Shown piece after piece: positions 10,805-46,406 of a DNA stretch of 46,508 bases. The stretch covers positions 1 to 46,508 of the forward strand of contig JACIXQ010000008.1 in the NCBI GenBank assembly GCA_014360465.1, given 5' to 3'. A program made the translations under genes and the position numbers. This stretch comes from a bacterium. Lineage in GTDB: Bacteria; Armatimonadota; JACIXR01. The notes below the pieces were generated by a model. That model was not told where the DNA came from and did no database searches. It was given only the letters and a program-made list of their open reading frames with translations. Position 1 is the first letter of the stretch; each line of letters begins with the position of its first letter.

Positions 10805-11125
10805 TCAAATCCGCAAAAAACGAGGATTTAATCTCCATCTTCTTGTTTTGGGTGCTGACCAAGTATCCTTATCAGCATCCTTCCATCCCACTCCTAAAAG
10901 CCATCCCTTCTTCGCAAGATTGCTAATTTGTTTACCTAAATACACATAGGGAGTATATCTTTTCCCACTTCCCCTTCCTCCTTCACACCCATAGCGCTCC
11001 ACCAGCTCCGAAAAATCGTCGCCGTAGCGGGCTCTGAATTCCATAATTATGTCATAGCTTGTTGCTTCTCCCCCCAAATCCCTGATGACATCCAGTATCT
11101 TTGCATACACATCCTCAACTAACAT
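10805..11125 (-). CDS. hypothetical 106-aa protein, last gene of the BMC operon
   Basis: Directly abuts the PduT-like gene (no gap) on the same strand. The basic C-terminus is 'KTRRWRLNPRFLRI'. No recognisable family. Confidence 0.4.
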   Translation of the reverse strand: MLVEDVYAKILDVIRDLGGEATSYDIIMEFRARYGDDFSELVERYGCEGGRGSGKRYTPYVYLGKQISNLAKKGWLLGVGWKDADKDTWSAPKTRRWRLNPRFLRI

Positions 11126-11677
11126 TCACCTCAAAACCCCCCATATATCTGGATGGGGAGAAGCAATTACAGAGGTGCCCACCAAAATGCCCTCTTTGGC
11201 TGCCTGTGCTGCTCCCGCTTCAACCGCTGATGTCACAGCGGAGACCTTGCCTGTCAGGGTGACGAAAGATTTTCCTCCTAAACCCCTCGCTACTCTTATC
11301 TCTATCAGCTGGACATTCGCCGATTTGGCAGCAGCATCCGCAGCCAGGATAGCCGAGGATATAGACCAGGTCTCTATTATCCCTATAGCTTCCCCTATCT
11401 CAAATTCCGTCGTGGCATTGAGGGCAGGGAAGACAGAAGGATGAAGGTTAGCAATTATCATTTTATCAATAACATTATCCTCACCAAAGGCTAAAGCTGA
11501 ATTCAAGGATGTCTCAACTTCTGCCACATCTCCACCGATTACTACGGTGAACTTGCCAGGGCAAAGTGGCGTAGCCACATAAAGGTTGACCTTTGCCGAT
11601 TTTAACATCAAATCCAGCGCCTCAACTCCCCTCGCTATGGAAACGAATTCAATAACTCCTAATGCATTCTGTGTCAT
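11126..11677 (-). CDS. pduT: tandem-BMC-domain shell protein, PduT-like (putative 4Fe-4S pore)
   Basis: 183 aa with two BMC repeats. 'ALGVIEFVSIARGVEALDLMLKSAKVNLYVATPLCPGKFTVVIGGDV' is closely similar to the Salmonella PduT N-terminus, including the cluster-ligating Cys in C-P-G-K-F. Confidence 0.8.
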   Translation of the reverse strand: MTQNALGVIEFVSIARGVEALDLMLKSAKVNLYVATPLCPGKFTVVIGGDVAEVETSLNSALAFGEDNVIDKMIIANLHPSVFPALNATTEFEIGEAIGIIETWSISSAILAADAAAKSANVQLIEIRVARGLGGKSFVTLTGKVSAVTSAVEAGAAQAAKEGILVGTSVIASPHPDIWGVLR

Positions 11678-12699
11678 CTCTCTCCTCCTTCCTGCATAAC
11701 AACAGGTATTGGCTCACCACAATTTGGACAGCGTCCATTCTTTATTTTAATTGAAAGAACCCTGAAAACATAGCGACTGATGAGACACATCCCACAGGAG
11801 GGACAGTATGTGTTCTCATAGCGATGCCCCGGTATATTCCCAATATAAACATATTTTACCCCTTTTCTTTTGGCTTCCCTGTAAGCCCACTCCATCTTTT
11901 CTATATCCGTAGGAGGGGCATGGAAATGATAGGCGGGGAAATAACGAGTAAAATGCAAAGGAACGGATTCTCCAGCGTATTTCAAATGTTGCTCAATCAC
12001 CCAATTGACAGCCTCTTCACTATCATTCACCGAGCTAACCATAAGGGAGACAATTTCAAGATGCATACCGAGTTCACGGGCTATCTTAGCATTTCGCCAG
12101 GGTATGTATGCATCCGCTTTGAGGAATTTCTCGTAACTCTCTGGGACACCCTTGATATCTATTTTTATCGCATCCAACCCCGCTTCTCTCAAACCTTCCA
12201 GAGCTTCAACCGTCATATATCCATTGGACACGATACAGGTATAAAGCATTTCTTTCTTTGCAAGCGGGAAGAGCTCAAAACAGTATTCGTAAAGAAGAGT
12301 TGGCTCGTTGAAGGAAACACAAATGCCCTGGTCCTTGCCTACAGCCATATTTATAACCTCTTGGGGTGAGATGAACCTCGTCTCCTCCACAACCTCTTTT
12401 GAAAGATGCCAGTTCTGACACCAGGGGCAGGGAAAGTTACAAGAATATGTTGAGATAGTTAGAGAAGATGTACCAGGATAAAAATGATAAAAGGGCTTAA
12501 TCTCTATAGGACGCGATTCTATAGCGCTTAGATTTCCATAAGAAAGAGTGAATAGCTCGCCATCTTTATTCACCCTCATCCGGCAGAACCCTCTTTTCCC
12601 CTCCTCTATGAGACAATGCCTTTCACATAGATGGCACTTGATGTTATTCCCCTCCACTCTCTCCCAGAGCAAAGCTCTTTTCATAGCAACTATTATCAT
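11674..12699 (-). CDS. radical SAM enzyme, AmmeMemoRadiSam (AmrS)/PflX-like family
   Basis: 341 aa. N-terminal 'CHLCERHCLIEEGKRGFC' followed by 'IEIKPFYHF...CNFPCPWCQNW' (CxxxCxxC), as in TIGR04337-type enzymes. The C-terminal cluster is 'CPSCGMC...CPNCG'. It overlaps both neighbours by 4 nt. Confidence 0.65.
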   Translation of the reverse strand: MIIVAMKRALLWERVEGNNIKCHLCERHCLIEEGKRGFCRMRVNKDGELFTLSYGNLSAIESRPIEIKPFYHFYPGTSSLTISTYSCNFPCPWCQNWHLSKEVVEETRFISPQEVINMAVGKDQGICVSFNEPTLLYEYCFELFPLAKKEMLYTCIVSNGYMTVEALEGLREAGLDAIKIDIKGVPESYEKFLKADAYIPWRNAKIARELGMHLEIVSLMVSSVNDSEEAVNWVIEQHLKYAGESVPLHFTRYFPAYHFHAPPTDIEKMEWAYREAKRKGVKYVYIGNIPGHRYENTYCPSCGMCLISRYVFRVLSIKIKNGRCPNCGEPIPVVMQEGGER

Positions 12700-14003
12700 T
12701 CTTTTCTAATCCTTATTTCCTGCGAAGTTATAGTGCTGATTACCCCATCTATAGAAGCGTGGATTCTCGCCCCAAGGGCTCCCTCCGGTATCTCTGCTAT
12801 CAAATCCCCTCTTTTCACCTTGTCCCCCACTTTCACAACGGGCTTTGCTGGCGCTCCAGCATGCTGTTTCAAAGGAAGTATCACCTCTTCCGGCTGATAA
12901 TCTACATCGCTTAGAGGTGCTGGAACATCGTAGATAGTGAGTCCGAGGCGAGATATCAGCCTGCTCGTGGGAACCCTTTTGGCGGAAAAGAGGGCTCTGG
13001 TTGAAGAAGGCTTATTTCTGTGAGGGTTGGGAATCTTATGTTCGCTAAGCTTCTGTTTTAGTGCCTGGATTATTCTCCTGGGGGAAAGTCCCATTGGGCA
13101 AGAATAATTCTCGCACAACCCACAATCGCAACAAAGGTAAGCCTCCGTCAATTTATCCTCCTCAGCGAGCCTCCAGGAAAGTACTTTCATTAAAAGGTGG
13201 GGCTCCATAGAATGTCCGAGGAGATAGCGGGGACACAATTCAGTGCATTCCCTGCAGTTACAGCAGGTTGATACTGCCCTACGGAGAACAGCGCTTAAAT
13301 CAGGCGAAAACTTCCCCCACAAAGGATGAGTTTTGGGGAAAACGAGGATACCTTTGGTAGTTTTCTGGATTGGGTAATCAAGCGAGGGGATCAACTTGCC
13401 CGTGTTCGGTCCACCTTCTACGATGAAGAACTCCTCAACGGTTGGACCTCCAGCGAGCTTCAGGGCATCCCTCACAGGAGTCCCAACTGGAAGCTTGAAG
13501 GTGCTTGGCTTCTGAACAGCTCCGCCCACTGTGACATATTTATCAACCACTGGTTGACCATCCATAGCTTTCCCAATGTTTATAACCGTCTCAACATTCA
13601 GGACGACGCAACCAACATCTAAAGGAATTCCACCTTCCGGCACGATTCTCTTGGTTACATCGTAGACAAGTATCTGCTCATCTCCTGCAGGGTAAAAATC
13701 TCCCAATATGAAAATCTCGTGCGGACCGCCGCCCTTCAACGCTTCAACAGCCTGTTTGTATTTTGCCTTCAGCGCAACGATGCCCTTCTTCGCCCTCACA
13801 GCTTCCATCGCCGCCTGCAACCCCCTGAGAAATATGGACTTCTCCCTGGGCAGGATTTGTTGGTCAACCCTCAGGAGCGGCTCGCATTCAGCTCCGTTAA
13901 CTATAAGGAACTCTGCTTGGGATGATAACTTTATATGGGTAGGGAAACCCGCTCCACCAGCTCCAACGATACCAGCTTCCCTTGCAACATCGGATAGCGC
14001 CAT
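12696..14003 (-). CDS. pduS: PduS-like RnfC-family flavin/Fe-S oxidoreductase
   Basis: 435 aa. 'GIVGAGGAGFPTHIKL' is the RnfC/PduS NADH-binding motif. It has two ferredoxin-type clusters, 'CCNCRECTELCP' and 'CCDCGLCENYSCP'. The stop overlaps the AldDH start. Confidence 0.75.
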   Translation of the reverse strand: MALSDVAREAGIVGAGGAGFPTHIKLSSQAEFLIVNGAECEPLLRVDQQILPREKSIFLRGLQAAMEAVRAKKGIVALKAKYKQAVEALKGGGPHEIFILGDFYPAGDEQILVYDVTKRIVPEGGIPLDVGCVVLNVETVINIGKAMDGQPVVDKYVTVGGAVQKPSTFKLPVGTPVRDALKLAGGPTVEEFFIVEGGPNTGKLIPSLDYPIQKTTKGILVFPKTHPLWGKFSPDLSAVLRRAVSTCCNCRECTELCPRYLLGHSMEPHLLMKVLSWRLAEEDKLTEAYLCCDCGLCENYSCPMGLSPRRIIQALKQKLSEHKIPNPHRNKPSSTRALFSAKRVPTSRLISRLGLTIYDVPAPLSDVDYQPEEVILPLKQHAGAPAKPVVKVGDKVKRGDLIAEIPEGALGARIHASIDGVISTITSQEIRIRKE

Positions 14004-15421
14004 CAGAGAATGCCACCGGTTAAAATAAACCTTCTCCTTCTACAGAAATCCCTTGGACGAGTTGGTCCCTCTCCTGTGGAGGCAACCGTCATAGCGAGGT
14101 AGCCTTCACCATCCGTGCCAACCGCTGCTGTGGAAGGTCCGTTGATTATGCAATAATTTGTATGCATCTCCTGGCGGAAACGAAGGATATTGGGTAAACT
14201 GCGAGAATGAAGTATAGATGTATGCTTGAAACCTTGTTCCGCTTTCTGAACAAGTCTCAACCCTTCCTCAAAGTTTCTTACCCGAACAAATGGGAGAACA
14301 GGAAGGAGTTGTTCCTCCATAACAAGTGGATGGTCTGTATCGCTTAGTTCTATAACGATTATCTTGGGTTCCTCTTGCGTTATAATTCCCGCCCGACGGA
14401 GGATTTCACCCGCGTCCAATCCCACCACTTCCCTCTTAATTTTGCCATCAGCAATTATCAGATTGATAATTCTCTCGGCTTCATCTCCTCTTGCTTCATA
14501 GGCTCCTTGCCTTTTCAGCTCGCGCATCAGGTTATCGGCTATGGAATCCACAGCGATGATAACCTTCTCGCCTATACAAAGGATATCATTATCGAAAGAT
14601 GCCCCCTTAATTATATCTGCCGCTGCCTTGGCTATATCAGCGGTCTCATCCACCAAAACCGGTGGATTGCCAGGACCCCCAACGATTGCCTTCTTCCCAC
14701 TTTGAAGAGCTGCTTGACAAACTCCCGGACCTCCTGCCGCCGTTACCATATCGACTTTCGGATGCTTCATCAACTCCTGAACAACTTCAATGGAGCTTTC
14801 GGCAACCGCTGTAACGAGGTTTGGAGGTCCACCCGCTTCCACAATCGCACGATTGATCACCCTTATTGCTTCCTTCGTGCACTCCTTCGCCTGGGGGTGT
14901 GGAGAGATAACAACGGCGTTACCGCCAGCTATCATCAAAATAGCGTGGCTGATAACGAAAGAAGTAGGATTGGTCATAGGGGTTATGGAGAGGATGACAC
15001 CAAAGGGCACATACTCTTGGATAGTAGTACCTTTTGGACCAACGATTATCTCCGGCTCCAGGTCTTCCATTCCAGGGGTTAGGAGGGCAGCTGCCTCGTT
15101 TTTCGCCACCTTGTGTTCCACTTTCCCCATCTTGGTTTCCTCCCTAGCCATCTCGGCAAGGCGACGGGCGTTCTTCAGGGCAGCTTGACGGATAGCTTCT
15201 ATAATCTGCCGCCTCTTATCCAGACCAAGGGCAAGGAGTTTTTTCTGCGCCTCAGCCGCCGCCTCAACAGCCTCATTTGGTGTCTGGAATATTCCATCAT
15301 CCCCTACCCTTGAAACCGGCTGGGCGCTCCTCTGGGAAATAGATGCTTGCCCTTCAAATAGCTCCTTTATAACTCTCTGAACCACTTCCCTTATTCTTTG
15401 CTCATCCAAAGCCATAGGCAA
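14003..15421 (-). CDS. CoA-acylating aldehyde dehydrogenase (PduP/EutE family) with N-terminal encapsulation peptide
   Basis: 472 aa. The amphipathic N-terminal helix is 'EQRIREVVQRVIKELF'. It has an ALDH fold with catalytic Cys in 'DNDILCIGEKV', the BMC-type AldDH family. Confidence 0.8.
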   Translation of the reverse strand: MPMALDEQRIREVVQRVIKELFEGQASISQRSAQPVSRVGDDGIFQTPNEAVEAAAEAQKKLLALGLDKRRQIIEAIRQAALKNARRLAEMAREETKMGKVEHKVAKNEAAALLTPGMEDLEPEIIVGPKGTTIQEYVPFGVILSITPMTNPTSFVISHAILMIAGGNAVVISPHPQAKECTKEAIRVINRAIVEAGGPPNLVTAVAESSIEVVQELMKHPKVDMVTAAGGPGVCQAALQSGKKAIVGGPGNPPVLVDETADIAKAAADIIKGASFDNDILCIGEKVIIAVDSIADNLMRELKRQGAYEARGDEAERIINLIIADGKIKREVVGLDAGEILRRAGIITQEEPKIIVIELSDTDHPLVMEEQLLPVLPFVRVRNFEEGLRLVQKAEQGFKHTSILHSRSLPNILRFRQEMHTNYCIINGPSTAAVGTDGEGYLAMTVASTGEGPTRPRDFCRRRRFILTGGIL

Positions 15422-15432
15422 CTACCTCCTTC

Positions 15433-15702
15433 TTATTTGCCAATATCAATGGAATCTATGATGCCCACTATAGAGGCATCAACTGGCGCCTCCGGGTTAT
15501 CAACCGCCAATCTTGCAGGAGACCCAAGAGCCACAACGACCATCTCACCGATACCAGCTCCAACAGTATCAACAGCAACAAACGGGTCGCCTCTTTGCTT
15601 ACCCTCTGGGGTAAGGGGCTGAACTACAAGGAGTTTGAAACCCTTAAGGTCCTCTTCCTTGCGAGTTGAGACGACCATACCTATTACCTTCGCTATTATC
15701 AA
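15433..15702 (-). CDS. BMC vertex pentamer (BMC-P; EutN/PduN/CcmL family)
   Basis: 89 aa. 'MIIAKVIGMVVSTRKEEDLKGFKLLVVQP...DTVGAGIGEMVVVALGS' is the typical EutN/CcmL fold sequence. Confidence 0.8.
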   Translation of the reverse strand: MIIAKVIGMVVSTRKEEDLKGFKLLVVQPLTPEGKQRGDPFVAVDTVGAGIGEMVVVALGSPARLAVDNPEAPVDASIVGIIDSIDIGK

Positions 15703-16322
15703 TTTCCTTCCTCCTCCTTTATTTGGATTCCTAATCTCTCCGCCAACTCACGTGCCATATCCGTCACGATCGAGCCCTGAGGAATTACCAAAACCTGTAA
15801 TCCCTTCTCTTTGCTCTCCCAGATGTCCTCCTGAGTTATTATCGTGCGTGGAGAAGGAGAGAGTGAGGACGCCGGTTTAGAAGCTTGGGGGGTTCTTATA
15901 CCGAGAGAGAGAATCTTCTCCCAGTGGCTTCTCAGGAGCTCTGCCAGCGCTTGAGGGCATTGGGGAGGAATGGTCAAAGGCTCAACTATTGGGGTTTTAC
16001 CCTGTAGAAGAAGATTCAGAACTGCCTCAAGCGGAGGGGTATCAAATAGTCCAAGGGATATTTTAGCCACATCCGCCCACTTGACATTCACCAGCCAGAT
16101 TTCCTCAAAAGCATCTATCGCCTGGTTTTTACTCCAAATTAAAGGGGATTTTCCCTCCCTTCTCAGCTTATCGAGGAAATCTTGGGGTGGTGAATTGTGG
16201 AGGGATATGACCAGGACCAGCTTTCCCTGGGAAGAAGGGACAGGAGGCGGGACCGCCTCCTGGTTCGTTAAGAGGCGACGAACCTCCGCCTCCACAAGTT
16301 GAACAAGGCGGTCTATATCCAC
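15699..16322 (-). CDS. hypothetical BMC-associated protein with N-terminal encapsulation-peptide-like helix
   Basis: 207 aa. N-terminal 'IDRLVQLVEAEVRRLL' amphipathic helix, then a Pro-rich linker 'PPPVPSSQG'. Its C-terminus, 'VLVIPQGSIVTDMARELAERLGIQI', matches no family that I can assign. It is not PduL (no HxH repeats). Confidence 0.45.
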   Translation of the reverse strand: MDIDRLVQLVEAEVRRLLTNQEAVPPPVPSSQGKLVLVISLHNSPPQDFLDKLRREGKSPLIWSKNQAIDAFEEIWLVNVKWADVAKISLGLFDTPPLEAVLNLLLQGKTPIVEPLTIPPQCPQALAELLRSHWEKILSLGIRTPQASKPASSLSPSPRTIITQEDIWESKEKGLQVLVIPQGSIVTDMARELAERLGIQIKEEEGN

Positions 16323-16363: not shown

Positions 16364-16663
16364 TTATAGCTTGAACTTCTCCAACAGCTTCTCCAGGCTC
16401 TCGTGCGGTCGGGCAATGATGTGGACGGAAATGACCTCTCCTACTTTCTTGGCATTTGCAGCTCCGGCATCAACAGCAGCTCTGACAGCACCTACATCTC
16501 CTCTCACCATAACGGTCACATAAGCTGAACCAACCTTCTCATAGCCCACGAGGACAACATTAGCTGCCTTGACCATTGCATCGGCAGCCTCAATCGCACC
16601 TACAAGTCCTCGGGTTTCAATCATTCCTAATGCTTCCATTCTCACAGCGGGGGCTTCAGCCAC
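16364..16663 (-). CDS. BMC-H hexamer shell protein (PduA/J-like)
   Basis: 99 aa. '[32 protein letters not shown]' is the canonical BMC domain. Confidence 0.85.
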
Positions 16664-16708: not shown

Positions 16709-17026
16709 TCATTCTATTTCAAGAAATTTCTGCCTTTCAGAGCCTACGGTTTCCCTACTTTCTATTAGGAAAACGAGGCTCTCCACCGGGCGAGGTATAA
16801 TATGAAATGACACAACTTCACCTACCTTTTTCGCCTCAGCCACTCCAGCTTCCACCGCGGCCTGAACCGCCGCCACATCTCCAGCAAGTTTAATCACGAG
16901 CATCCCACCACCACCTTTCGCGAGCTCATATCCAATTAATCGGACAGAAGCAGCTTTACAAGCCGCATCAGCCGCAGTCAATCCAGCGGTCAAACCCTTA
17001 ACCTCTATCAGACCTATTGACTCCAT
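16709..17026 (-). CDS. BMC-H hexamer shell protein with short C-terminal extension
   Basis: 105 aa. 'IGLIEVKGLTAGLTAADAACKAASVRLIGYE' is a BMC domain. It overlaps the aldolase 3' end by 29 nt. Confidence 0.8.
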   Translation of the reverse strand: MESIGLIEVKGLTAGLTAADAACKAASVRLIGYELAKGGGGMLVIKLAGDVAAVQAAVEAGVAEAKKVGEVVSFHIIPRPVESLVFLIESRETVGSERQKFLEIE

Positions 17027-17768
17027 CCTTGTTCAATTCCTCCAGAACTTTCCTTGTTATCCTATCAACCAGTTTCTGCATATCTATATTTCCCAGAGCA
17101 CAGAGACCACAATCCTCGCAGATAGGATTTGAAGAGACCCTATTGCGGGATTGCAAAAGTTTTAACACCTCTTCAGTAGTAAGAACCCTCTCCCTTCCCA
17201 AGAGGCGAGCAAGTAGCGATATCTTTGCATAATGCTCCAGCGTCTCCATCCGGTAATAAGCCTGAATGGGGCTATCACCAACCGTAAAGGCACCGTGGTT
17301 TTCAAGAAGAACCGCGTTTCTGTTTTTTATATATGGTCTTATTGCCTCAACAAGCTCGGGAGTGCCCGGCGTTCCATAGGGAGAAAGAGGAACTCCGTCA
17401 AGATGAAGAATTGCTTCGGGAAGGATTGGATGTTCAAGGGAAATTCCTGCCACAGCGAAGGCAGTTGCGAAAGGAGGGTGGGCGTGAAGAACAGCTTTCA
17501 CATCGGGACGCTCCTTGTAAATCATCAGATGGACAAATATCTCCGATGATGGCTTCAGATAACCCTCGGTGGCGTTTCCGTCCATATCCACTTTCACTAT
17601 CATATCAGGAGTCATAAACCCCTTTGAGACACCGGTGGGGGTTGTGAGGACAAAATTATCGTCCAACCGGCAAGTGATGTTTCCATCGTTGGCTGCGACG
17701 AAACCCTTCTGCCAGAGCCGTCTGCCAACTTCTATTATTTCTTGTCTTAAAGCGCTTTCCTTTTCCAT
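16998..17768 (-). CDS. class II aldolase (L-fuculose/rhamnulose-1-phosphate aldolase family) with C-terminal Cys motif and encapsulation peptide
   Basis: 256 aa. It has an Aldolase_II fold ('GFVAANDGNITCRL', 'HAHPPFATAFA'). The C-terminal tail 'PICEDCGLCALGNIDMQKLVDRITRKVLEELNK' carries a CxxCxxC triad followed by an amphipathic helix. Confidence 0.8.
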   Translation of the reverse strand: MEKESALRQEIIEVGRRLWQKGFVAANDGNITCRLDDNFVLTTPTGVSKGFMTPDMIVKVDMDGNATEGYLKPSSEIFVHLMIYKERPDVKAVLHAHPPFATAFAVAGISLEHPILPEAILHLDGVPLSPYGTPGTPELVEAIRPYIKNRNAVLLENHGAFTVGDSPIQAYYRMETLEHYAKISLLARLLGRERVLTTEEVLKLLQSRNRVSSNPICEDCGLCALGNIDMQKLVDRITRKVLEELNKDGVNRSDRG

Positions 17769-17785: not shown

Positions 17786-17814
17786 ATTTTACAGAGCTAT
17801 TTCGGCTGTGTCAA
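17786..17814 (-). promoter_or_regulatory. sigma70-type promoter for the BMC operon (minus strand: -35 TTGACA, 17-bp spacer, -10 TAAAAT)
   Basis: The reverse complement of 17786-17814 reads TTGACA-cagccgaaatagctctg-TAAAAT. The -10 element lies about 17 nt upstream of the aldolase ATG. Confidence 0.45.
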
Positions 17815-18153: not shown

Positions 18154-21100
18154 ATGAAAAAATCGTTACTTATAGTAATGGTTGCTTTCCTGTCTATCTC
18201 TCTTTTGCGAGGACAGGAAAAGGTGAAATTGACCCCCGAATTGCGGAAGCTTTACGGGGAGCTGACCTCAGCTGTAAAGGAGGAAAACATCAGGGATGTA
18301 ATTACGAAGCTTTCCTCCTTCCCAAGCCGCGTCACAGGCTACCCCGGTTGCGATGAAGCAGCAAAATTCGTGAAACAGAGATTTGAAGAGCTGGGTCTCC
18401 AAGATGTCGTTATGGAGGAATTTACAATTCCCACCCCCTATGATAGGGGAGCTACCCTGGAGATTCCCTCCCGCAATATTAAGATGAGGATTTACCCCCT
18501 CTGGCCTAACGCTATAAGGACTCCTTCCCTTCCCCCTGAAGGTGTAAGAGGACCTCTGATCTATGCTGGTGACGGTCATCTCCAATTTTTTGATGGAAAG
18601 AAAGTAGAAGGTTCAATCGCCCTTTTGAAATTCAACTGTGGAGTCCGTTGGTTAAATGCCCCTCGTTTGGGTGTAAAAGTTGTTCTCTTTGAGGAACCCG
18701 ATATAACTATGAGAGGCGAAGCAGAGGCAAAATTCATTTCAATACCCATTGATATAGCTCGCTTCTGGGTTCGCAAGGAAGATGCCCAGGTCTTAAGGAA
18801 GATTATGTCCGAAGACCCATCGGTTGAAGCGATTGTGAAATGCTCCATGCCTTGGGAATTGAAAAAGGGTTACAATGTCATTGGTTTTTTGCCCGGTACG
18901 GATGAGAAATTGAAAAACCAACTGATAATCGTGGAATCATTCTTCGATTCCATCTCCATCGCTCCTTCTCTGGCTCCGGGAGCGGAAAGTGCTTCCGGCA
19001 TCGCCGCTCTCCTGGAAATAGCTCGCATTTTCAAAGAAAGACCACCAAAGAGGTCGGTTCTTTTCATCGCCACTTCCGGGCACTTTGAGGCGCTTAGCGG
19101 GATAAGGGCTTACTTTACAAAGCACTTCAAGGAATATGAAAAGCTCGGTCCTATGGAGAAGATAAAAGGATTCTTTGCACGTGTCTTCCATACCGGATAC
19201 AAGCCGCGAGAGATAAAGAAGGTTTACCTCTTCACGGGATTGGACCTCTCAAGCCAATCACAAGCTATCGGAATATTCTACAAATCTATGTTCTACGAGA
19301 TAAGGGAAGACCGCCAGAGGGATTTCTCCGATATTGCGAGGGTATGTAGAGAGAATGCAGAGAGGGTAGCGGAATTTATGAAGATTAAGCCCGAGCTTAT
19401 TTTCGCTGATGGTATTAATCCAATAGCGGGTAAGCCTTGGAGAACCTTCATTCCTGGAAAAGCCGCCCTTGATGCTGAGCTTTTTACTATGATGGGCGGC
19501 TATGGCGTTTCTTTCTTCACAATAAACGATTCCCGTTCCCTCGTTGATACTCCCTTTGATACAGTTGATAGGATGAACTTCCCCAATCTTATGAGACAGG
19601 TAAAGCTACTTGCTTGCCTATACCATCATATTTTCAATGACCCACCGCGTAAAGGGACGACCACCGCACTTCGCTTCCCGATAACTGAACCATCAAAGAT
19701 AGAACGCTTGGGCTTGATGAACGGGTTCGGCACATTAGCAGGTAGAGTTGTCTATTTCGACCCCAGGAAAAGCTTCATACCGGATGTCCCAATTCCCAAT
19801 TCAATAGTTATCCTCAAACATTGGAATAAGAGTATGATGGGTGTGAGGGGACATATGATAGAGATGACGGACAAAGATGGTAAATTTGAATTCAATGGAG
19901 TAGCTACCATAACGGCAATAGGATGGCGTAGACCGGCAACAGTAAATGCTTATAAATTAGATGATAAAACCGGAGAAATCATCTATGCACCCGACTTAGG
20001 TGCAATGGGTGCGGAGGCTTACCCAGTGGATGCGATGATGACTGTTGGGAAGAAGTATGTGACCGTCGTTGCTTTCCGCTGTGCTTCCCTTTCAATATTT
20101 GACCTCGTTGACCCTCAGGGATTGGCAATCCTTACAAATATTGCCATTCTTGATGGGATAACTGACGGTACACCCAGGATGTATGGACAGGCGATAAGCT
20201 TACCAGAAGCTTGGATGCCTCATGTGGATGACTGCGCCGTTATATTTGCTGAGCCAGGTAGCCGAATTAAGGTTATAATGGGCGCCGGTCCAGCGGCGAT
20301 AAGGTTCCTCCTTCTCCACGCAACTCCGAAAAACCCCAAGGGCGATGGCTATGAGGTTAAAGGTTCAGGGACTCTCTACTTTACCCCTTATAAAGTTGCT
20401 AAGGATATGTGGATCTGGGATGAATACCGTATGTCCAAGCTCCGCCGTTTCCGCATCATAAATGATGTGTTGGAAGACCTTCACAGAAGGGCAAAGGAAG
20501 AATTGGACAGAGCGGAAAAAGAATTAGCTCAACTTAATTATAGTCGGTTTTACGCTCACGCGAGAAGTGCTTGGGGCTATGAGACTAGGGCTTACCCCGT
20601 AGTAAGGAGCACGGGAGATGATGTAGTAAGGGGCGTAATCTTCTATATGGCGATAGTCATTCCATTCGCTTTCTTCCTTGAGAGATTGCTATTCGCCTTT
20701 CCGACTCTCATTCAGCAACTCGCTGGCTTGGGTGGGATATTCCTTGCAACCTTCGTCCTTTTCCGTTACCTCCATCCTGCCTTTGAAATCGCCCTCAACC
20801 CGCTCGTCATCCTCCTTTCCTTCGTGATGCTTGCTATGGCTGGGGCGGTCGCAGCTGTAGTCGTGGGTAAGTTCCAAGAGCAATTGAAACTCCTACATCG
20901 TTCCCTCACTGGTGTTCACAGAGTGGATATCGGTAGGTTCTCAATTGCTGCCTCGGCTCTATCACTTGGCATCTCCAATATGAGACGAAGAAAAGCGAGA
21001 ACAGCGTTGACCTGTATTACCTTGATAGTTCTGACATTTGCCGTGCTTGCTTTCACTTCCGTGAAGCCGGTGATGCGCTTCAATAAGGTACCAGGCAAGG

Positions 21101-22683
21101 GCGTGCCTGCATATCAAGGAGTTATGCTGAGAACTCCTATGTGGAGCGAATTACAGGAGGTTGCCTATAGGTTATTGCACGACGAGTTCACATCCAGGGG
21201 CTATAAAGTATCTCCTCGTATCTGGTTCTACACCTCCGCCTGGGATGAGCAATCCTTCGTTACGCTCGTTTCCGCAGCTAATCCGTCGGACACATATGAT
21301 GTCAAAGCTTTAATGGGGCTCGGACCCGAGGAATCAAGTATAACCAGACCACAAAAAGCGCTAAAAGCAGGGAGATGGATAGAGGCTAAAGATACGAATG
21401 TGTGTATTATTCCCGAAGGAGTGGCGAAGAAGCTGAAGATAAAGGTAACCGATGTTGGCAAAGCCCAAATACTCATCGGTGGAGTGAAATTCACGGTTAT
21501 AGGTATTTTAGATAATAATAAATTCAAGAAAATAAAAGACCTGGATAACGAACCTATCACTCCCGTTGACTTCGTAGCGATGCAGAAACAACAGCAGCAA
21601 GGGCAAACCAGCCAGCAAGCTGGTTTTAGAGAATACATCCATCTTGAACCCGATGCCGTTGCAATCATTCCCTACCAAACCCTACTTAATATGGGCGGGA
21701 CCCTTCGCTCCGTTGCTATTGACCTCGTTTCCGCTGAAGAAGTCAAGAGGGTTCTCGGCGACCTGATGCCTCGCTTAGCTTTAAATATGTACGCAGGTGA
21801 GGGCAACAAAATCTCCCGCTACTCCACCCTGGCAATTTCTGCACCCGTCGGTTGGACAGAGCTTGCTATTATAATCCTCATAGCTGTTCTCATCGTCTTG
21901 GATACGATGTTGGCAGCTGTATATGAAAGGGTCAGGGAGATAAGGATATTCGCTTCGCTGGGCTTAGCTCCTAACCACATTGCTATGCTTTTCTTCGCTG
22001 AAGCATTGGTATACGCCGTCATCGGTGCCATAGCCGGTTACATTGTGGGACAAACGGTCGTGAAAATCTTGATAGCAACCGGAAAGATTGGTCACCTCTA
22101 CCTCAACTTCTCCTCAATGTCCGCTGTTCTTGCCACCTTCGTCGTTGTTGCTGTGACACTTCTCTCTACAATCTACCCCGCAAGAAAAGCTTCCGAGGTT
22201 GCCACCCCGGCACTCGAGAGAACCTGGACATTACCCGAACCAGAAGGTGATGTCTGGAACATTACCCTGCCCTTCTCCGTTACTGGTGAGCAATCCCGCG
22301 GTTTAGCTGGTTTCTTGAAAGAATGGCTTGAAGCTTACGAGGAATATTCGGTAGGTGATTTCGTAACCGCGGATGTTAAAGCTCATACTTTTGTCAAATA
22401 CGATATGAAGGGCTACCAGATTGATTTTATGACCTGGCTCGCACCCTTCGACCTCGGTGTTAGCCAGAGGGTGAGTATGATCATTGACCCAACGACTATC
22501 AAAGATGTTTACGACATAAAGATGGTGATAAAGAGGGAAAGCGGCGATGTTGCCAACTGGAAGAGAGTCAACCGCCGGTTCCTCAATACAATTAGAAAAC
22601 AATTCCTTATCTGGCGCACGATAAGCGTCGCCGATAGGGAAAGGTATGTGAAGATGTCCGAAGAAATAGCCGAACTCGCTTAA
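18154..22683 (+). CDS. giant fusion protein: secreted M28-like peptidase/PA ectodomain + FtsX/MacB-type (ABC3) permease domain + C-terminal cytoplasmic domain of unknown function
   Basis: 1509 aa. Signal peptide, then M28-family signatures ('NVIGFLPG', 'GAESASGIAALLEIARIF', 'LFIATSGHFEALSG') in which canonical Zn/catalytic residues appear substituted. There are multiple TM helices and a typical FtsX motif, 'AAVYERVREIRIFASLGLAP'. The permease module begins at 'MRRRKARTALTCITLIVLTFAVLAFTSV'. Confidence 0.6.
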   Translation: MKKSLLIVMVAFLSISLLRGQEKVKLTPELRKLYGELTSAVKEENIRDVITKLSSFPSRVTGYPGCDEAAKFVKQRFEELGLQDVVMEEFTIPTPYDRGATLEIPSRNIKMRIYPLWPNAIRTPSLPPEGVRGPLIYAGDGHLQFFDGKKVEGSIALLKFNCGVRWLNAPRLGVKVVLFEEPDITMRGEAEAKFISIPIDIARFWVRKEDAQVLRKIMSEDPSVEAIVKCSMPWELKKGYNVIGFLPGTDEKLKNQLIIVESFFDSISIAPSLAPGAESASGIAALLEIARIFKERPPKRSVLFIATSGHFEALSGIRAYFTKHFKEYEKLGPMEKIKGFFARVFHTGYKPREIKKVYLFTGLDLSSQSQAIGIFYKSMFYEIREDRQRDFSDIARVCRENAERVAEFMKIKPELIFADGINPIAGKPWRTFIPGKAALDAELFTMMGGYGVSFFTINDSRSLVDTPFDTVDRMNFPNLMRQVKLLACLYHHIFNDPPRKGTTTALRFPITEPSKIERLGLMNGFGTLAGRVVYFDPRKSFIPDVPIPNSIVILKHWNKSMMGVRGHMIEMTDKDGKFEFNGVATITAIGWRRPATVNAYKLDDKTGEIIYAPDLGAMGAEAYPVDAMMTVGKKYVTVVAFRCASLSIFDLVDPQGLAILTNIAILDGITDGTPRMYGQAISLPEAWMPHVDDCAVIFAEPGSRIKVIMGAGPAAIRFLLLHATPKNPKGDGYEVKGSGTLYFTPYKVAKDMWIWDEYRMSKLRRFRIINDVLEDLHRRAKEELDRAEKELAQLNYSRFYAHARSAWGYETRAYPVVRSTGDDVVRGVIFYMAIVIPFAFFLERLLFAFPTLIQQLAGLGGIFLATFVLFRYLHPAFEIALNPLVILLSFVMLAMAGAVAAVVVGKFQEQLKLLHRSLTGVHRVDIGRFSIAASALSLGISNMRRRKARTALTCITLIVLTFAVLAFTSVKPVMRFNKVPGKGVPAYQGVMLRTPMWSELQEVAYRLLHDEFTSRGYKVSPRIWFYTSAWDEQSFVTLVSAANPSDTYDVKALMGLGPEESSITRPQKALKAGRWIEAKDTNVCIIPEGVAKKLKIKVTDVGKAQILIGGVKFTVIGILDNNKFKKIKDLDNEPITPVDFVAMQKQQQQGQTSQQAGFREYIHLEPDAVAIIPYQTLLNMGGTLRSVAIDLVSAEEVKRVLGDLMPRLALNMYAGEGNKISRYSTLAISAPVGWTELAIIILIAVLIVLDTMLAAVYERVREIRIFASLGLAPNHIAMLFFAEALVYAVIGAIAGYIVGQTVVKILIATGKIGHLYLNFSSMSAVLATFVVVAVTLLSTIYPARKASEVATPALERTWTLPEPEGDVWNITLPFSVTGEQSRGLAGFLKEWLEAYEEYSVGDFVTADVKAHTFVKYDMKGYQIDFMTWLAPFDLGVSQRVSMIIDPTTIKDVYDIKMVIKRESGDVANWKRVNRRFLNTIRKQFLIWRTISVADRERYVKMSEEIAELA

Positions 22684-42244: not shown

Positions 42245-43648
42245 CGCTCTTCCTCAAAAATAATTTACTCGAAAAGGGGTAGTTTCCTCAATAATAATGA
42301 TGACAAGAGGCAATCATCTCCTACAATTTATTCCTATAATGAACTTTCTAAAAGGAGGTGTAAGAAGATGATTGCCTCTATTCCGAAAGAAGTATACTCC
42401 CTTGAGAGTAAACGTGCAATAATAAAAGCGAATGCCAGCAGGTACAGACAAGCAACAAAGAAAGAGAAGACGCTTTTACTTAATGAGTTATGTACAATCC
42501 TATACTTGTCACGCTCTTATACTGCACGGCTCTTGAGGGGATGCGGTAAAGTGATATACTTCAAAGGGGTAAGATTTTTAGCGGAATGGGATAGCAGAAG
42601 TATACACAGGAGGGGAAGAAAAAAGATTTACTCGGAAGAGATAGTCCCTTATCTTTTGAAAATATGGAGAGTAGCGGGATACATCTCCTCTAAGCACTTA
42701 AGGGTTTACATTTCTGCAAACAGCGATAAGTTATTCTCCCATCCTGAATTAGTGTCCGCATCGGAGGAGATAAAGGAGAAACTACTGAAAATAAGTCCCG
42801 CTACAATAGATAGATTGCTCAAACCACATAGGTGGAAATTGAGAGCAAAGGGGAAATACAAAAGCAATCCCTTCAGCTCAAATGTTAAAAGAGCCGTTCC
42901 CACGGAAAGCTATTTTGATAAGAAAAAGGAAACCGGGGATATGGAAGTAGACATCCTCTACCATAGTGGGGAATCAGCAAAAGGAGAATTTTTCTTCACG
43001 CTTACCGCCACGGAGGTGACCACGGATTGGACAGAGTTGCGCCTTTTAAAGAATAAAGCTATGGTGTGGACTGTAGAGGCTTTGAAGAGCATCGTCAGTG
43101 ATATGCCTATAAATGTAAAGAGTATACACACGGATAACGGTTCAGAATTCTTGAACCATCATATGTATAGATTTTGCCAAGAGAAGGGTATAAAGTTTAG
43201 GCGTTCTCGTCCCTATCGCAAGAATGATGCTCCCTATGTAGAGAGCAAGAATTGGTCACTTGTTAGGCGTTATACAGGGTGGCGGCGATATGATTCGGAA
43301 GAAGAAGGCGAGATACTGAGAACACTTCTTTACCTTCTAAGTTTGAGGCACAACATTTTTACTCCTACGATAAAGACAAAGGGCAAGGTAAAGGAAGGTA
43401 ATAAGGTAAGAGTGCAAAAAGATATCAACACGCCATACAATAGGGTGTTAGAACTTTCCGAGGTGTCGGAGGAGACGAAAGAAAAACTAAAGGCAATGAG
43501 AGCTAATATAGACTTATTCGAACTATCAGAACGGATTGAGATGTTGGAAAAAAGACTTGACAAAGCATATCAAATAAAGGTAAGGAGGTATAACAATGAA
43601 TAAACGGAACAAGCTTTCAAAGCAATTTATTTTTGAGGAAAGACGAAT
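42245..43648 (+). mobile_element. insertion sequence (about 1.4 kb) with about 30-bp imperfect terminal inverted repeats and a single DDE transposase ORF
   Basis: Left end 42251-42277 is TCCTCAAAAATAATTTACTCGAAAAGG. The reverse complement of 43613-43639 is TCCTCAAAAATAAATTGCTTTGAAAGC. Similarity extends a few bp outward on both sides. Confidence 0.5.
42368..43603 (+). CDS. DDE (rve/integrase-core) transposase
   Basis: 411 aa with an N-terminal HTH-like region and 'IHTDNGSEF' in the integrase catalytic core. Strong RBS AAAGGAGG. Confidence 0.7.
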   Translation: MIASIPKEVYSLESKRAIIKANASRYRQATKKEKTLLLNELCTILYLSRSYTARLLRGCGKVIYFKGVRFLAEWDSRSIHRRGRKKIYSEEIVPYLLKIWRVAGYISSKHLRVYISANSDKLFSHPELVSASEEIKEKLLKISPATIDRLLKPHRWKLRAKGKYKSNPFSSNVKRAVPTESYFDKKKETGDMEVDILYHSGESAKGEFFFTLTATEVTTDWTELRLLKNKAMVWTVEALKSIVSDMPINVKSIHTDNGSEFLNHHMYRFCQEKGIKFRRSRPYRKNDAPYVESKNWSLVRRYTGWRRYDSEEEGEILRTLLYLLSLRHNIFTPTIKTKGKVKEGNKVRVQKDINTPYNRVLELSEVSEETKEKLKAMRANIDLFELSERIEMLEKRLDKAYQIKVRRYNNE

Positions 43649-43898: not shown

Positions 43899-44630
43899 GT
43901 GAAGAGAAATGGCTTCACCCTCATAGAGCTCTTGGTAGTAATAGCTATAATCGCCATCCTTGCAGCGATCCTTTTTCCCGTTTTCAGCAAGGCAAGGGAA
44001 AAAGCGAGGGAGGTTAACTGCACGAGCAATATGCGCCAAGTTGGTTTGGCTCTTAGAATGTATCTTCAGGATTGGGATGAGCGATATCCACCTGCTTCTC
44101 TATGGAAAACCCGTCTTCAACCCTATATGAAAAGCACCGATTTATTCCGTTGCCCCAGCAGACCTCAGTTACCCTGGTATTACGGGCACGGCTATAATAT
44201 CGGATATGCTGGAGTTTATCCACCTGTCTATGGCTTTGTAGAGTTGACATCCATTTTACCCAATGGCATTCCAAATCCAAACGCACCGGGCAGAAGCGAT
44301 GCCTCTATTGTTTCACCTTCAATGAAGATATTCGCTCCAGAATGGGATAGATGCAATTCTGGACCACCAGTTGGTCCGGTAGGGCTTTTTCACGGAGGGG
44401 CAACATCCTACTGGGCTGTCTGCCGTGTGCACAATGGTGGGTCAAATGTTCTTTTCGCTGATGGACATGTTAAATGGATGAGACCAGAACAGTATCATAG
44501 TAGAGCTGACCATATAGATGCTAATGGCATTCCAGTAGATGAAAATGGCAATCCCATAGGTCCCGAGGCTGTAGTTCCGGAAAATATTTGGAGAACCTAT
44601 TGGGACACAAACTACGAACCTGTCCAATGA
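43899..44630 (+). CDS. prepilin-type N-terminal cleavage/methylation domain protein with DUF1559 (H-X9-DG) domain
   Basis: 243 aa, GTG start. '[29 protein letters not shown]' is a class III signal peptide. The C-terminal '[14 protein letters not shown]' is the H-X9-DG motif. Confidence 0.8.
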
Positions 44631-45136
44631 AAGCATTCCAATGGTCTGTTAGAGAAATAGCAAGAGCGAGTTTCTTAGCCGCTTTGGGGATTGCCCTTCC
44701 CTATCTTTTCCATCTTATTGGCGCGGGAAAGATATTCCTTCCAATGCATATCCCCATTGCCCTTGGTGGATTTCTTTTGCCTCCCACCCTTGCTGGCTTC
44801 CTTGGAGGAGTCGTCCCCTTTCTTTCCTCCGTCTTAACCGGAATGCCTCCCATCGTTCCGACAATGCCCCTGATGGTGCTTGAATTAACTGGATTAGGTT
44901 TTACAACTTCTATACTCTATAGACGGTTGAAAGCTGGTATTTGGTTAAGCCTTATAGGCGGATTAATTGGTGATAGGATTGTACTTGGCTTTGCTGCCTT
45001 TCTTTTAGGGAAATGGCTTGAAATCAAATCCCCCATTGGTTATGTCGCTGGTGCAGTAGCTACAGGCTTCCCCGGCATCCTTTTGCAACTCATTCTTATA
45101 CCTCCTATAATTTATTACTATGAGAAGCGAAACTGA
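44627..45136 (+). CDS. ECF-transporter substrate-specific (S) component-like small membrane protein
   Basis: The ATG at 44627 overlaps the pseudopilin stop (ATGA); the ORF track extends upstream to 44588. About 170 aa, 5-6 TM helices. Directly upstream of the EcfT-EcfA gene. Confidence 0.4.
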
Positions 45137-46406
45137 TAAACCACCCATATATTTCCTCGCTTTGCCTTTTTTCCTGCTCATCCCGTTCCTTCTTCCCCTT
45201 CCAATGGAATTAATCCTCTTTTTTCTCTTCTTTTCCGCCGGCTGGGTCATCGTTTACGGTGTGAGATGGGAATGGCTCAAGAAAAGACTCGTTCCATTTC
45301 TCATATCTCTCGCTTCTTTGACCGTTTTCTCCCTTTTACTTGGTGCTGATATCAACAAATCGCTCGAACTCGCCGTCCGTTGTTTAGGGGCTTTTCTTGC
45401 TTTTTCCTTGCTCACTGCCCGCATTACCCCGAACGATGTGCTGAAACTTTTTTCTAAAGATAGAAAACCCTCCGCCTTTGCCTTATTTTTTTATTTGATT
45501 TATCGTTACCTCTTTCTTGTAGTGGAGGAAGGAGAGAAGATGTTGCGCTCAGCTCGGGCAAGAGGAGGTGGTCGGAAAAGCTTTTTAGGAAAACCTTTGA
45601 AGCTGTTCATTAACTATATCTTGAGAGTATTGCGAAGGAGCGAGAGAGTGGCATTGGCGATTGAAGCGAAAGGTTGGGAAGGTACAGATTCAACCTCCTT
45701 ACTCAAAGACGATATTCTATTAGAAAATGTTTCCTATACCTATCCAGATGGAAAGCAAGCGCTGAAGGGAATAAATATAAGAATTCAAAGAGGAGAAAAA
45801 ATCGCCATTTTAGGAGCAAATGGAGCGGGCAAATCCACACTCCTATGGATATTAGGTGGCTTTCTAACACCACTGGGCAAAGTCGAGATCTTCGGAGTGG
45901 AAGTCAAAAAAGAGAACCTTCCATATCTTAGAAAAATTGTGGGAATCGTATTTGAAGACCCTGATGACCAGTTATTGATGCCAACCGTTCTTGAGGATAT
46001 AGCCTTCGGTCTATTAAATCTGGGGTACAAAAGAATGGAAGCAGAGCAATTGGCGAAGGAGCAACTGAAAATTTTCGGTCTTGAAGGTTACGAGTATAGC
46101 CATCCTCATAACCTATCGCAAGGAGAAAAAAGAAAAGCAACCCTTGCTGGAGTGCTTGTTATGAAACCAAAGCTTCTCCTTCTGGACGAACCAAGCGCAA
46201 ACTTGGATGCTATAGCTCGAAAAGAGTTGATAGAGATACTTAGTAAAATTGACACAACCAGCCTCATAGCTACTCACGACATTGAACTTGTAAGCAAAAT
46301 CTGTGATAGAGCAATCGTTCTCCAAAAGGGCGAGGTCGTTTACGATGGTTCAATGGATGCTTTACTCAAGGAAAGGAAAAAACTTGAAGATTGGGGGATA
46401 ATATAG
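45120..46406 (+). CDS. fused ECF transporter T component (CbiQ/EcfT) + ABC ATPase (CbiO/EcfA)
   Basis: 428 aa. The N-terminal half is hydrophobic, with an 'ARARGGG' EcfT-type loop. The C-terminal half has Walker A 'GANGAGKST', signature 'LSQGEKRK' and Walker B 'LLLLDEP'. Confidence 0.65.
   Translation: MRSETDKPPIYFLALPFFLLIPFLLPLPMELILFFLFFSAGWVIVYGVRWEWLKKRLVPFLISLASLTVFSLLLGADINKSLELAVRCLGAFLAFSLLTARITPNDVLKLFSKDRKPSAFALFFYLIYRYLFLVVEEGEKMLRSARARGGGRKSFLGKPLKLFINYILRVLRRSERVALAIEAKGWEGTDSTSLLKDDILLENVSYTYPDGKQALKGINIRIQRGEKIAILGANGAGKSTLLWILGGFLTPLGKVEIFGVEVKKENLPYLRKIVGIVFEDPDDQLLMPTVLEDIAFGLLNLGYKRMEAEQLAKEQLKIFGLEGYEYSHPHNLSQGEKRKATLAGVLVMKPKLLLLDEPSANLDAIARKELIEILSKIDTTSLIATHDIELVSKICDRAIVLQKGEVVYDGSMDALLKERKKLEDWGII

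Follow-up and report, generated by a model that had tools for sequence, protein, structure and literature searches.

Introduction

The PduS protein of Salmonella was originally assigned as a cobalamin reductase (cited in Ferlez et al., 2019, PMC6325248, and in Axen et al., 2014, PMC4207490). Axen et al. (2014; PMC4207490) described PduS and its partner PduT in bacterial microcompartment (BMC) loci that are independent of B12 i.e., those of the GRM1, GRM5, MUF and SPU (Atribacteria) types, and also an SPU-like type with a class II aldolase in Latescibacteria. Two hypotheses were later put forward for the pair: the export of NADH electrons through PduT, or the reduction of radical S-adenosylmethionine (SAM) activating enzymes (Ferlez et al., 2019; PMC6325248). 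More recently, PduS/PduT were renamed MNdh/BMC-T^SE, with 2,172 MNdh loci recorded amongst more than 7,000, including PVM, ACI, SPU and GRM types, and with AldDh and MNdh occurring without AlcDh in 361 loci (Sutter et al., PNAS 2024; PMC11626177). In the same study, the path NADH -> FMN -> Fe-S -> BMC-T^SE was backed by a purified complex from Clostridium botulinum, electron paramagnetic resonance and voltammetry. We analyzed here a 46,508-nucleotide stretch of contig JACIXQ010000008.1 (assembly GCA_014360465.1), referred to throughout as the window, in which a first-pass annotation had placed a PduS/PduT-type electron-transfer pair at 11126-14003, in a microcompartment with a class II aldolase and no B12-dependent enzyme.

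Both genes of the pair proved to be real and intact. The interval, however, holds three genes and not two, as the annotation had overlooked a radical SAM gene (11674-12699) lying between pduS and pduT. The export model for the pair is not new, a B12-independent role having been raised in 2014 and 2019 and supported in 2024 (PMC11626177), and an export pair by itself is one more example of a published module that adds little. The unreported element of the locus is the conserved arrangement of pduS, the radical SAM gene, pduT and a gene for a 106-aa protein.

PduS and PduT homologues as a probable electron-export module

The interval 11126-14003 lies inside one minus-strand operon, which is bounded by a promoter-like site (17814-17786) and, at its other end, by position 10805. 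The gene for an aldehyde dehydrogenase (AldDH) is the upstream neighbour of pduS, and pduT is one gene away. The genes at this end of the operon are as follows.

14003-15421, minus strand: AldDH of the BMC CoA-acylating type, 472 aa from a TTG start or 470 aa from an ATG two codons downstream; NF011927 PRK15398, 550 bits vs. a cut-off of 403
12696-14003, minus strand: PduS/MNdh homologue, 435 aa; Pfam and RnfC structure matches, FMN/NADH sites and two [4Fe-4S] clusters predicted
11674-12699 (1026 bp), minus strand: AmmeMemoRadiSam-type radical SAM enzyme, 341 aa (336 aa from the second ATG); TIGR04337, PF04055 E = 4e-19
11126-11677, minus strand: PduT/BMC-T^SE homologue, a tandem BMC-domain shell trimer protein of 183 aa; two BMC domains, pore residue C39
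10805-11125, minus strand: clade-restricted protein, 106 aa; start codon directly after the pduT stop (TGAATG)

The PduS homologue contains the Pfam domains Complex1_51K (residues 8-143, E = 5.7e-40), SLBB (156-190), Fer4_17 (247-307) and RnfC_N (370-430), in the circularly permuted order that has been described for PduS/MNdh (PMC11626177). Consistent with this, it matched the solved RnfC chain 7zc6_C (E = 1.9e-53) in two permuted segments. In an alignment of 76 sequences, i.e., the PduS of the window and 75 metagenome homologues, Cys247/250/253/257 and Cys291/294/297 were invariant (76/76), with Cys302 present in all sequences except one (75/76). The Gly-rich motif GIVGAGGAGFP occupies residues 11-21. 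The earlier statement that the GxGGAGFP motif and both ferredoxin clusters are intact is thus borne out, with all eight cysteines present. The four permuted domains, the Gly-rich motif and the two tetracysteine motifs are those of an MNdh, as which the protein may be classified on its sequence.

The PduT homologue has two BMC domains (Pfam, E = 3.3e-44), and full-length matches were obtained to three crystal structures of PduT (3nwg, 3pac and 3n79; E = 3e-49 to 8e-44). The pore motif reads C39-P-G-K-F, and its Cys, Gly and Lys were found in 65/65 homologues, in agreement with the cysteine having been called intact. Since the protein scored below the NCBIfam equivalog cut-off for TIGR02526 (eut_PduT; 123.5 vs. 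250.3 bits), we regard it as a divergent member, which nonetheless has the structural and motif features of a PduT.

By comparison with the MNdh/BMC-T^SE module (Sutter et al., 2024; PMC11626177), the locus shares the permuted four-domain PduS, the Gly-rich motif, the eight cluster cysteines and the pore CP(G/S)K, as well as an AldDH, the lack of an AlcDH and a B12-independent compartment. It differs in that pduS and pduT are separated here by the radical SAM gene, with overlapping junctions, whereas the 2024 census named no specific co-occurring redox partner. In the proposed scheme, AldDH would convert an aldehyde to acyl-CoA and NADH. At PduS, flavin mononucleotide (FMN) would accept the two electrons of NADH, which would then travel one at a time along both [4Fe-4S] clusters of this protein, reach the [4Fe-4S] cluster of the PduT pore and finally leave for a cytosolic acceptor. 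Export of this kind would replace the missing alcohol dehydrogenase.

B12-dependent enzymes and alcohol dehydrogenases

Look-ups for the operon yielded eight distinct loci of one clade: the window (= L001/L002), L003, L004/L008, L005/L006/L009, L007, L087, L169 and L170. A Pfam scan of the operon and of 24 other long open reading frames in the window gave no hits for B12-dependent enzymes, B12-binding domains, adenosyltransferases, alcohol dehydrogenases or PduL; the 24 frames outside the operon encode housekeeping and sugar-related genes only. The window and those flanks of related loci that carry Pfam calls encode no PduCDE, EutBC or PduO/EutT adenosyltransferase, and PduL, acetate kinase and alcohol dehydrogenase were missing from the operon in 8/8 loci. 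Rfam detected no cobalamin riboswitch, nor a riboswitch of any kind, in the window, which also contained no tRNAs. The claim that the microcompartment has no B12-dependent enzyme therefore holds for the window of 46.5 kb and for the Pfam-annotated sequence that flanks the related loci, and the claim that it has no encapsulated alcohol dehydrogenase for the window and the operon in all eight loci.

These data bear on the reading of PduS as a classical cobalamin reductase that serves a B12 enzyme encoded elsewhere in the genome. Such a role would agree with the original assignment in Salmonella and with an ECF-type transporter whose T component is of the CbiQ family (44588-46406), a family that is generic for vitamin and metal uptake. 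It is opposed by the lack of a B12 enzyme, a B12-binding domain, PduO/EutT and a cobalamin riboswitch within the scopes given above, and by the structural argument of Sutter et al. (2024; PMC11626177) that MNdh could hardly accommodate cobalamin. We consider this reading scarcely credible.

The role assigned to the pair in the first-pass annotation, i.e., recycling of NAD+ by exporting the electrons of NADH across the shell, is instead supported, with intact motifs, an AldDH gene upstream, no alcohol dehydrogenase in eight loci and no B12 enzyme, adenosyltransferase or riboswitch in the window. Taken together, the data make it very probable that PduS and PduT form an MNdh/BMC-T^SE export module, which re-oxidizes the NADH derived from AldDH in an aldolase-type compartment.

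A radical SAM gene conserved between pduS and pduT

The start of the radical SAM gene overlaps the pduS stop by 4 bp (ATGA), and its stop overlaps the pduT start by 4 bp (ATGA), with AGGAGG just before. The encoded protein passed the TIGR04337 (AmmeMemoRadiSam) cut-off marginally, with 224.5 bits vs. 220. The CxxxCxxC motif of radical SAM enzymes is present as C87-NFP-C91-PW-C94, and the protein also keeps the N-terminal CxxCxxxCx9C and C-terminal CxxC...CxxC motifs of the family. Matches to activase models were much weaker (NrdG2, E = 3e-13; PFLA, E = 2.5e-9), and the models for activases of glycyl radical enzymes, TIGR02493 and TIGR02494, gave 37 and 19 bits, far under their cut-offs. No related solved structure was found at E <= 0.001, and a full-text literature search for "AmmeMemoRadiSam" returned incidental mentions only.

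The protein is 52-58% identical to archaeal and other bacterial homologues, with the best matches outside the clade in thermophilic archaea (56-58%). Horizontal transfer from archaea was considered and set aside, as the bacterial matches (52-53%) are nearly as close. It matches TIGR04337 over its full length, just above the cut-off, and shares all three cysteine motifs with the proteins of AmmeMemoRadiSam systems; unlike them, it is embedded in a microcompartment operon, away from AMMECR1 and Memo genes in the Pfam-annotated neighbourhoods. Systems of Memo and AMMECR1 are the subject of Burroughs et al. (2019), as cited in PMC7159879. Two unrelated members of the radical SAM family that we examined were likewise without adjacent AMMECR1/Memo partners.

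Exact and homologue look-ups recovered the order pduS, radical SAM gene, pduT and 106-aa gene in 8/8 distinct clade loci. Across the clade, identity to the window was 66-77% for the radical SAM protein, 75-82% for PduS and 78-86% for PduT. By contrast, no member of the radical SAM family was detected within 8 kb of 79 other PduS loci (those at <=53% identity; tblastn E <= 1e-5), and PduS, PduT and shell genes were all missing within 10 kb of 77 other, mostly archaeal loci of the radical SAM family. Both samples were drawn from the top 80 matches of each search and do not amount to a census. As the order is kept in eight loci and the combination is absent from 79 + 77 others, the radical SAM gene is not a chance neighbour. 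The radical SAM gene had a dN/dS of ~0.08 and the 106-aa gene one of ~0.09, vs. 0.03-0.05 for pduT, pduS (~0.05) and AldDH; these values are rough, with synonymous sites saturated in most pairs, and show strong purifying selection only. The low ratios indicate that both the radical SAM gene and the 106-aa gene are maintained by selection.

Conservation of this kind can also be explained by descent. Every related locus for which the upstream flank was recovered has the same M28/FtsX gene (~1,500 aa) upstream, and the loci with the three-gene order therefore belong to one lineage. The radical SAM gene might accordingly be a passenger i.e., a housekeeping AmmeMemoRadiSam enzyme that was inserted once in the lineage ancestor and is co-transcribed with, and functionally unrelated to, PduS and PduT, which would only recycle NAD+. 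Several observations agree with this. The shared M28/FtsX flank points to one insertion event, and the protein is a typical full-length family member with no extension or insertion specific to the BMC clade. Furthermore, unrelated genes separate pduS from pduT elsewhere: the intervening gene codes for a polytopic membrane protein of 326 aa in L106 (9245-10222) and for a TPR-repeat protein in L161 (9291-9998), in line with the 1.8% of loci (39 loci) in which a single gene separates MNdh from BMC-T^SE (Sutter et al., 2024; PMC11626177). Given these two cases, the class of loci with one gene in between is heterogeneous. Against a passenger, however, stand the stop/start overlaps on both sides of the radical SAM gene, which are kept in every locus, and the retention of the gene in exactly this slot even though the flanks downstream of the operon have changed, with LysE/YmdB/DnaE in some loci and cytidylate kinase or GlmS in others. 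In addition, pduS and pduT were directly adjacent in 64/66 other loci with a detectable downstream pduT (97%), and an insertion into such a pair without disruption suggests that expression of the gene along with the pair is tolerated at the least, and that it may even be favoured. We take the passenger reading to be a real possibility that falls somewhat short of being probable; it is the main rival to a supply of electrons from PduS to the enzyme, and we rate the two as equally likely.

A second alternative is that PduS and PduT mainly power the radical SAM enzyme, in the manner of the activases of GRM compartments, with the bulk of NAD+ being recycled by cofactor exchange through the shell or by an unrecognized reductase. 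GRM compartments (Ferlez et al., 2019; PMC6325248) resemble the locus in that their PduS/PduT genes, too, are accompanied by one for a radical SAM enzyme related to PflA and the compartment does not depend on B12, and the same hypothesis, with PduS as the electron source, has been proposed for them. Together with the tight gene order and the relationship of the radical SAM protein to activases of the PflA/NrdG type, this precedent favours the alternative. The locus differs from the GRM type, however, in having no glycyl radical enzyme and in that its radical SAM protein belongs to the TIGR04337 family and not to those of the glycyl radical enzyme activases. The possibility of a glycyl radical enzyme or motif in the operon was pursued and rejected, since no such domain occurs in the scanned open reading frames of the window and none was seen when the C-termini were read directly; nor does the operon encode any other obvious protein substrate. 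Moreover, MNdh/BMC-T^SE is found in thousands of loci without a radical SAM gene (PMC11626177), none of the 79 sampled here has one (0/79), and an AldDH without an alcohol dehydrogenase still needs a sink to regenerate NAD+. The purified C. botulinum complex, for its part, is reported to pass electrons of NADH to generic acceptors, at catabolic rates, with no such enzyme present. That powering the radical SAM enzyme is the main task of the pair is thus improbable.

Clade-restricted proteins of the operon

Two further proteins of the operon were analyzed. The 106-aa protein is encoded directly after pduT, as listed above, and the other upstream of AldDH.

15699-16322, minus strand: 207-aa protein with an encapsulation-peptide-like N-terminal helix, a flavoprotein-like (HFCD/UbiX-fold) domain and a C-terminal motif

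Close homologues of the 207-aa protein number 21 and are restricted to the clade. A model based on a 16-sequence alignment (pLDDT 80.8) predicts an amphipathic helix at the N-terminus (residues 3-19), followed by a Rossmann-like domain (33-140) and, at the C-terminus, a small alpha/beta unit. The C-terminal motif is common to the N-terminus of EutQ and the C-terminus of PduM. A direct Pfam scan of the clade sequences gave only noise, and a profile search of 1.84 billion representatives retrieved 494 relatives. Amongst the relatives that were scanned, 10/10 matched TIGR02536 (a BMC-associated 'eut' family), all below the cut-off, one passed the threshold of PF02441 (Flavoprotein) and another matched the archaeoflavoprotein AfpA weakly. 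On the evidence of the fold and the profile searches, the 207-aa protein appears to be flavoprotein-like, with flavin binding as a prediction. According to Sutter et al. (2024; PMC11626177), MNdh operons commonly encode PF02441 flavoproteins, which are possible acceptors of the electrons.

The 106-aa protein had only 9 homologues in 5.8 billion proteins. Every homologue with an examined contig was encoded in the same operon, directly after pduT. Eight sequences shared 48 invariant columns, with the invariant core ERYGCEGG.GSG.RYTP. The protein could not be matched to a known partner or substrate: it had no Pfam or NCBIfam match, its helical AlphaFold2 model had a pLDDT of 66 and Foldseek returned nothing below E = 3 against the PDB.

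Possible electron supply to the radical SAM enzyme

Were it coupled to the module, the radical SAM enzyme would obtain from PduS the single low-potential electron that SAM cleavage requires, whether by direct transfer or with the 207-aa protein in between. Such a supply is favoured by the ATGA overlaps at both junctions, by the gene order kept throughout the clade, by the earlier proposal of PduS as a reductase of radical SAM activases in GRM compartments (PMC6325248) and by the presence, in the same operon, of the flavoprotein-like 207-aa protein with its encapsulation-peptide-like helix. From our analysis, it is possible that the enzyme draws its catalytic electron from PduS, and we stop short of calling it probable. 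The enzyme is not a bulk electron sink, as each electron would cost one SAM, and it is unlikely to be fed from PduT in view of the potential of the PduT cluster, measured at +99 mV in a Pdu homologue. More tentatively still, pduS, the radical SAM gene and pduT, possibly with the 106-aa gene, may encode a dedicated shell-anchored machine, in which NADH made in the compartment drives the reductive activation of the radical SAM enzyme, possibly through the 207-aa protein; we regard this as somewhat unlikely.

If a machine of this type exists, MNdh/BMC-T^SE would for the first time be tied genetically, in nature, to a specific redox client. An idea of long standing, the reduction of radical SAM enzymes by PduS homologues in microcompartments, would gain direct support from genomes, and the function of the AmmeMemoRadiSam family would become easier to approach. 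In any case, a lineage with a radical SAM gene between pduS and pduT is a natural test system, for this uncharacterized family as well.

Overall, an export module with a conjectured radical SAM branch is, in our view, the likely explanation of the locus. Gene content, motifs, operon structure, conservation and purifying selection were observed here, and the path of the electrons is taken from the literature on a homologous complex; encapsulation, the substrate of the aldolase and any transfer from PduS to the radical SAM enzyme are what we infer.

A number of points weigh against this explanation. Typical radical SAM clusters have potentials far below those of the PduT cluster and the PduS flavin, and with PduS/PduT potentials so much higher, reduction of the enzyme by PduS would be uphill and could not go via PduT. 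The values cited for the Pdu proteins are +99 mV for the PduT cluster and -150 to -262 mV for the FMN of PduS (PMC6325248). The radical SAM enzyme has neither a recognizable encapsulation peptide nor an extension that could serve as one, and AMMECR1 and Memo, the usual partners of its family, were seen neither in the window nor in the Pfam-annotated sequence within 10 kb on either side of the related loci. The assignment of the 207-aa protein to the flavoproteins rests on fold-level evidence, and canonical FMN-binding motifs are not obvious in its sequence. Finally, as all loci with the radical SAM gene come from one lineage, their gene order could be inherited rather than a sign of functional coupling.

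The aldolase-type operon and its encapsulation signals

The remaining features of the operon are a promoter-like site, the signature enzyme and the shell proteins.

17786-17814, minus strand: promoter-like site upstream of the operon, TTGACA-17-TAAAAT, 11/12 positions; the best consensus match of the region, as a pattern match only
16998-17768, minus strand: class II aldolase, the signature enzyme, 256 aa; PF00596 E = 8.2e-54
16709-17026, minus strand: BMC-H shell protein, 105 aa; PF00936 E = 2.2e-26
16364-16663, minus strand: BMC-H shell protein, 99 aa; PF00936 E = 5e-29, clade identity 97-98%
15433-15702, minus strand: BMC-P vertex protein, 89 aa; PF03319 E = 2.1e-33

The PF00596 match agrees with the earlier designation of a class II aldolase as the signature enzyme. 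No NCBIfam equivalog reached its cut-off for this protein, with OtnC (149 bits) at the top and FucA-type models at ~114 bits. In clade alignments, conserved amphipathic helices of the form (L/I)V(D/E)R(I/V)xxxV(L/M)xEL were found at three sites: the N-terminus of AldDH (IREVVQRVIKELF), the C-terminus of the aldolase (LVDRITRKVLEEL), both conserved in the clade, and the N-terminus of the 207-aa protein. The same alignments revealed no helix resembling an encapsulation peptide in PduS, PduT or the radical SAM enzyme. The lack of a helix in PduS fits the published view that it binds PduT directly (PMC6325248).

Amongst described metabolosomes, the PVM, PVM-like and ACI types (Axen et al., 2014; Sutter et al., 2021) likewise combine a PF00596 aldolase bearing an encapsulation-peptide-like C-terminal helix with AldDH, BMC-H and BMC-P. 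The operon differs from the PVM and ACI types in having one BMC-P as opposed to a triplet, and in being without PduL, acetate kinase, lactaldehyde reductase, a DeoR regulator and a 2-hydroxyacid dehydrogenase. In addition, MNdh/BMC-T^SE is encoded here in the main locus, whereas that of PVM loci is mostly found in satellite loci (PMC11626177). The resemblance to PVM-like loci is one of gene content. In the sample of 79 other PduS loci, a class II aldolase was present within 8 kb in at least 12 and AldDH in 43.

In the C-terminal part of the aldolase (residues ~205-256; 16998-17200, minus strand), the linker that joins the aldolase domain to the encapsulation-peptide-like helix contains a CxxC that is conserved in the clade, NP[ILV]C[ES][ED]C, with a third cysteine in most members including that of the window. 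This CxxC may be a metal or redox site.

Two separate PduS-PduT pairs were seen in some loci or contigs, i.e., in L093 (2569-4375 and 8001-9811) and in L131 and L156, which lie on the same contig (Ga0268360_1000159). In L093, the two pairs, three BMC-P genes and an aldolase gene are found within 12 kb.

Taxonomic context and neighbouring genes

One of the eight clade loci, L169, lies on contig JACIXR010000009.1 of assembly GCA_014360495.1. JACIXR01 is a GTDB placeholder phylum, 'Candidatus Hacexiota', which comprises two Shengli oilfield genomes, 2.55-2.69 Mb in size and with a GC content of 44.9-46.0% (PMC11382960). The locus tags of the window (H5T87_) are next to those of the GCA_014360495.1 genome (H5T88_), and the GC content and synteny of the window agree with such a placement. 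The lineage that carries the radical SAM gene between pduS and pduT is probably this phylum, and the locus would thereby extend aldolase-type microcompartments to a placeholder phylum that is barely sampled.

Divergent from the operon, the window contains a gene (18154-22683, plus strand) for a 1,509-aa protein with M28 peptidase, MacB-like and FtsX permease domains, followed by one for a 656-aa protein without a Pfam match. A 411-aa protein with an rve integrase core is encoded at 42368-43603 (plus strand), in the stretch of the window with the lowest GC content (39%; 42-44 kb), and its gene is probably an insertion sequence. Proteins combining an N-terminal prepilin-type methylation motif with DUF1559 are encoded in the window (43899-44630, plus strand) and in L003 (15962-16603). 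This combination is typical of Planctomycetota and allied phyla, and the DUF1559 proteins thus hint at the affinities of the lineage.

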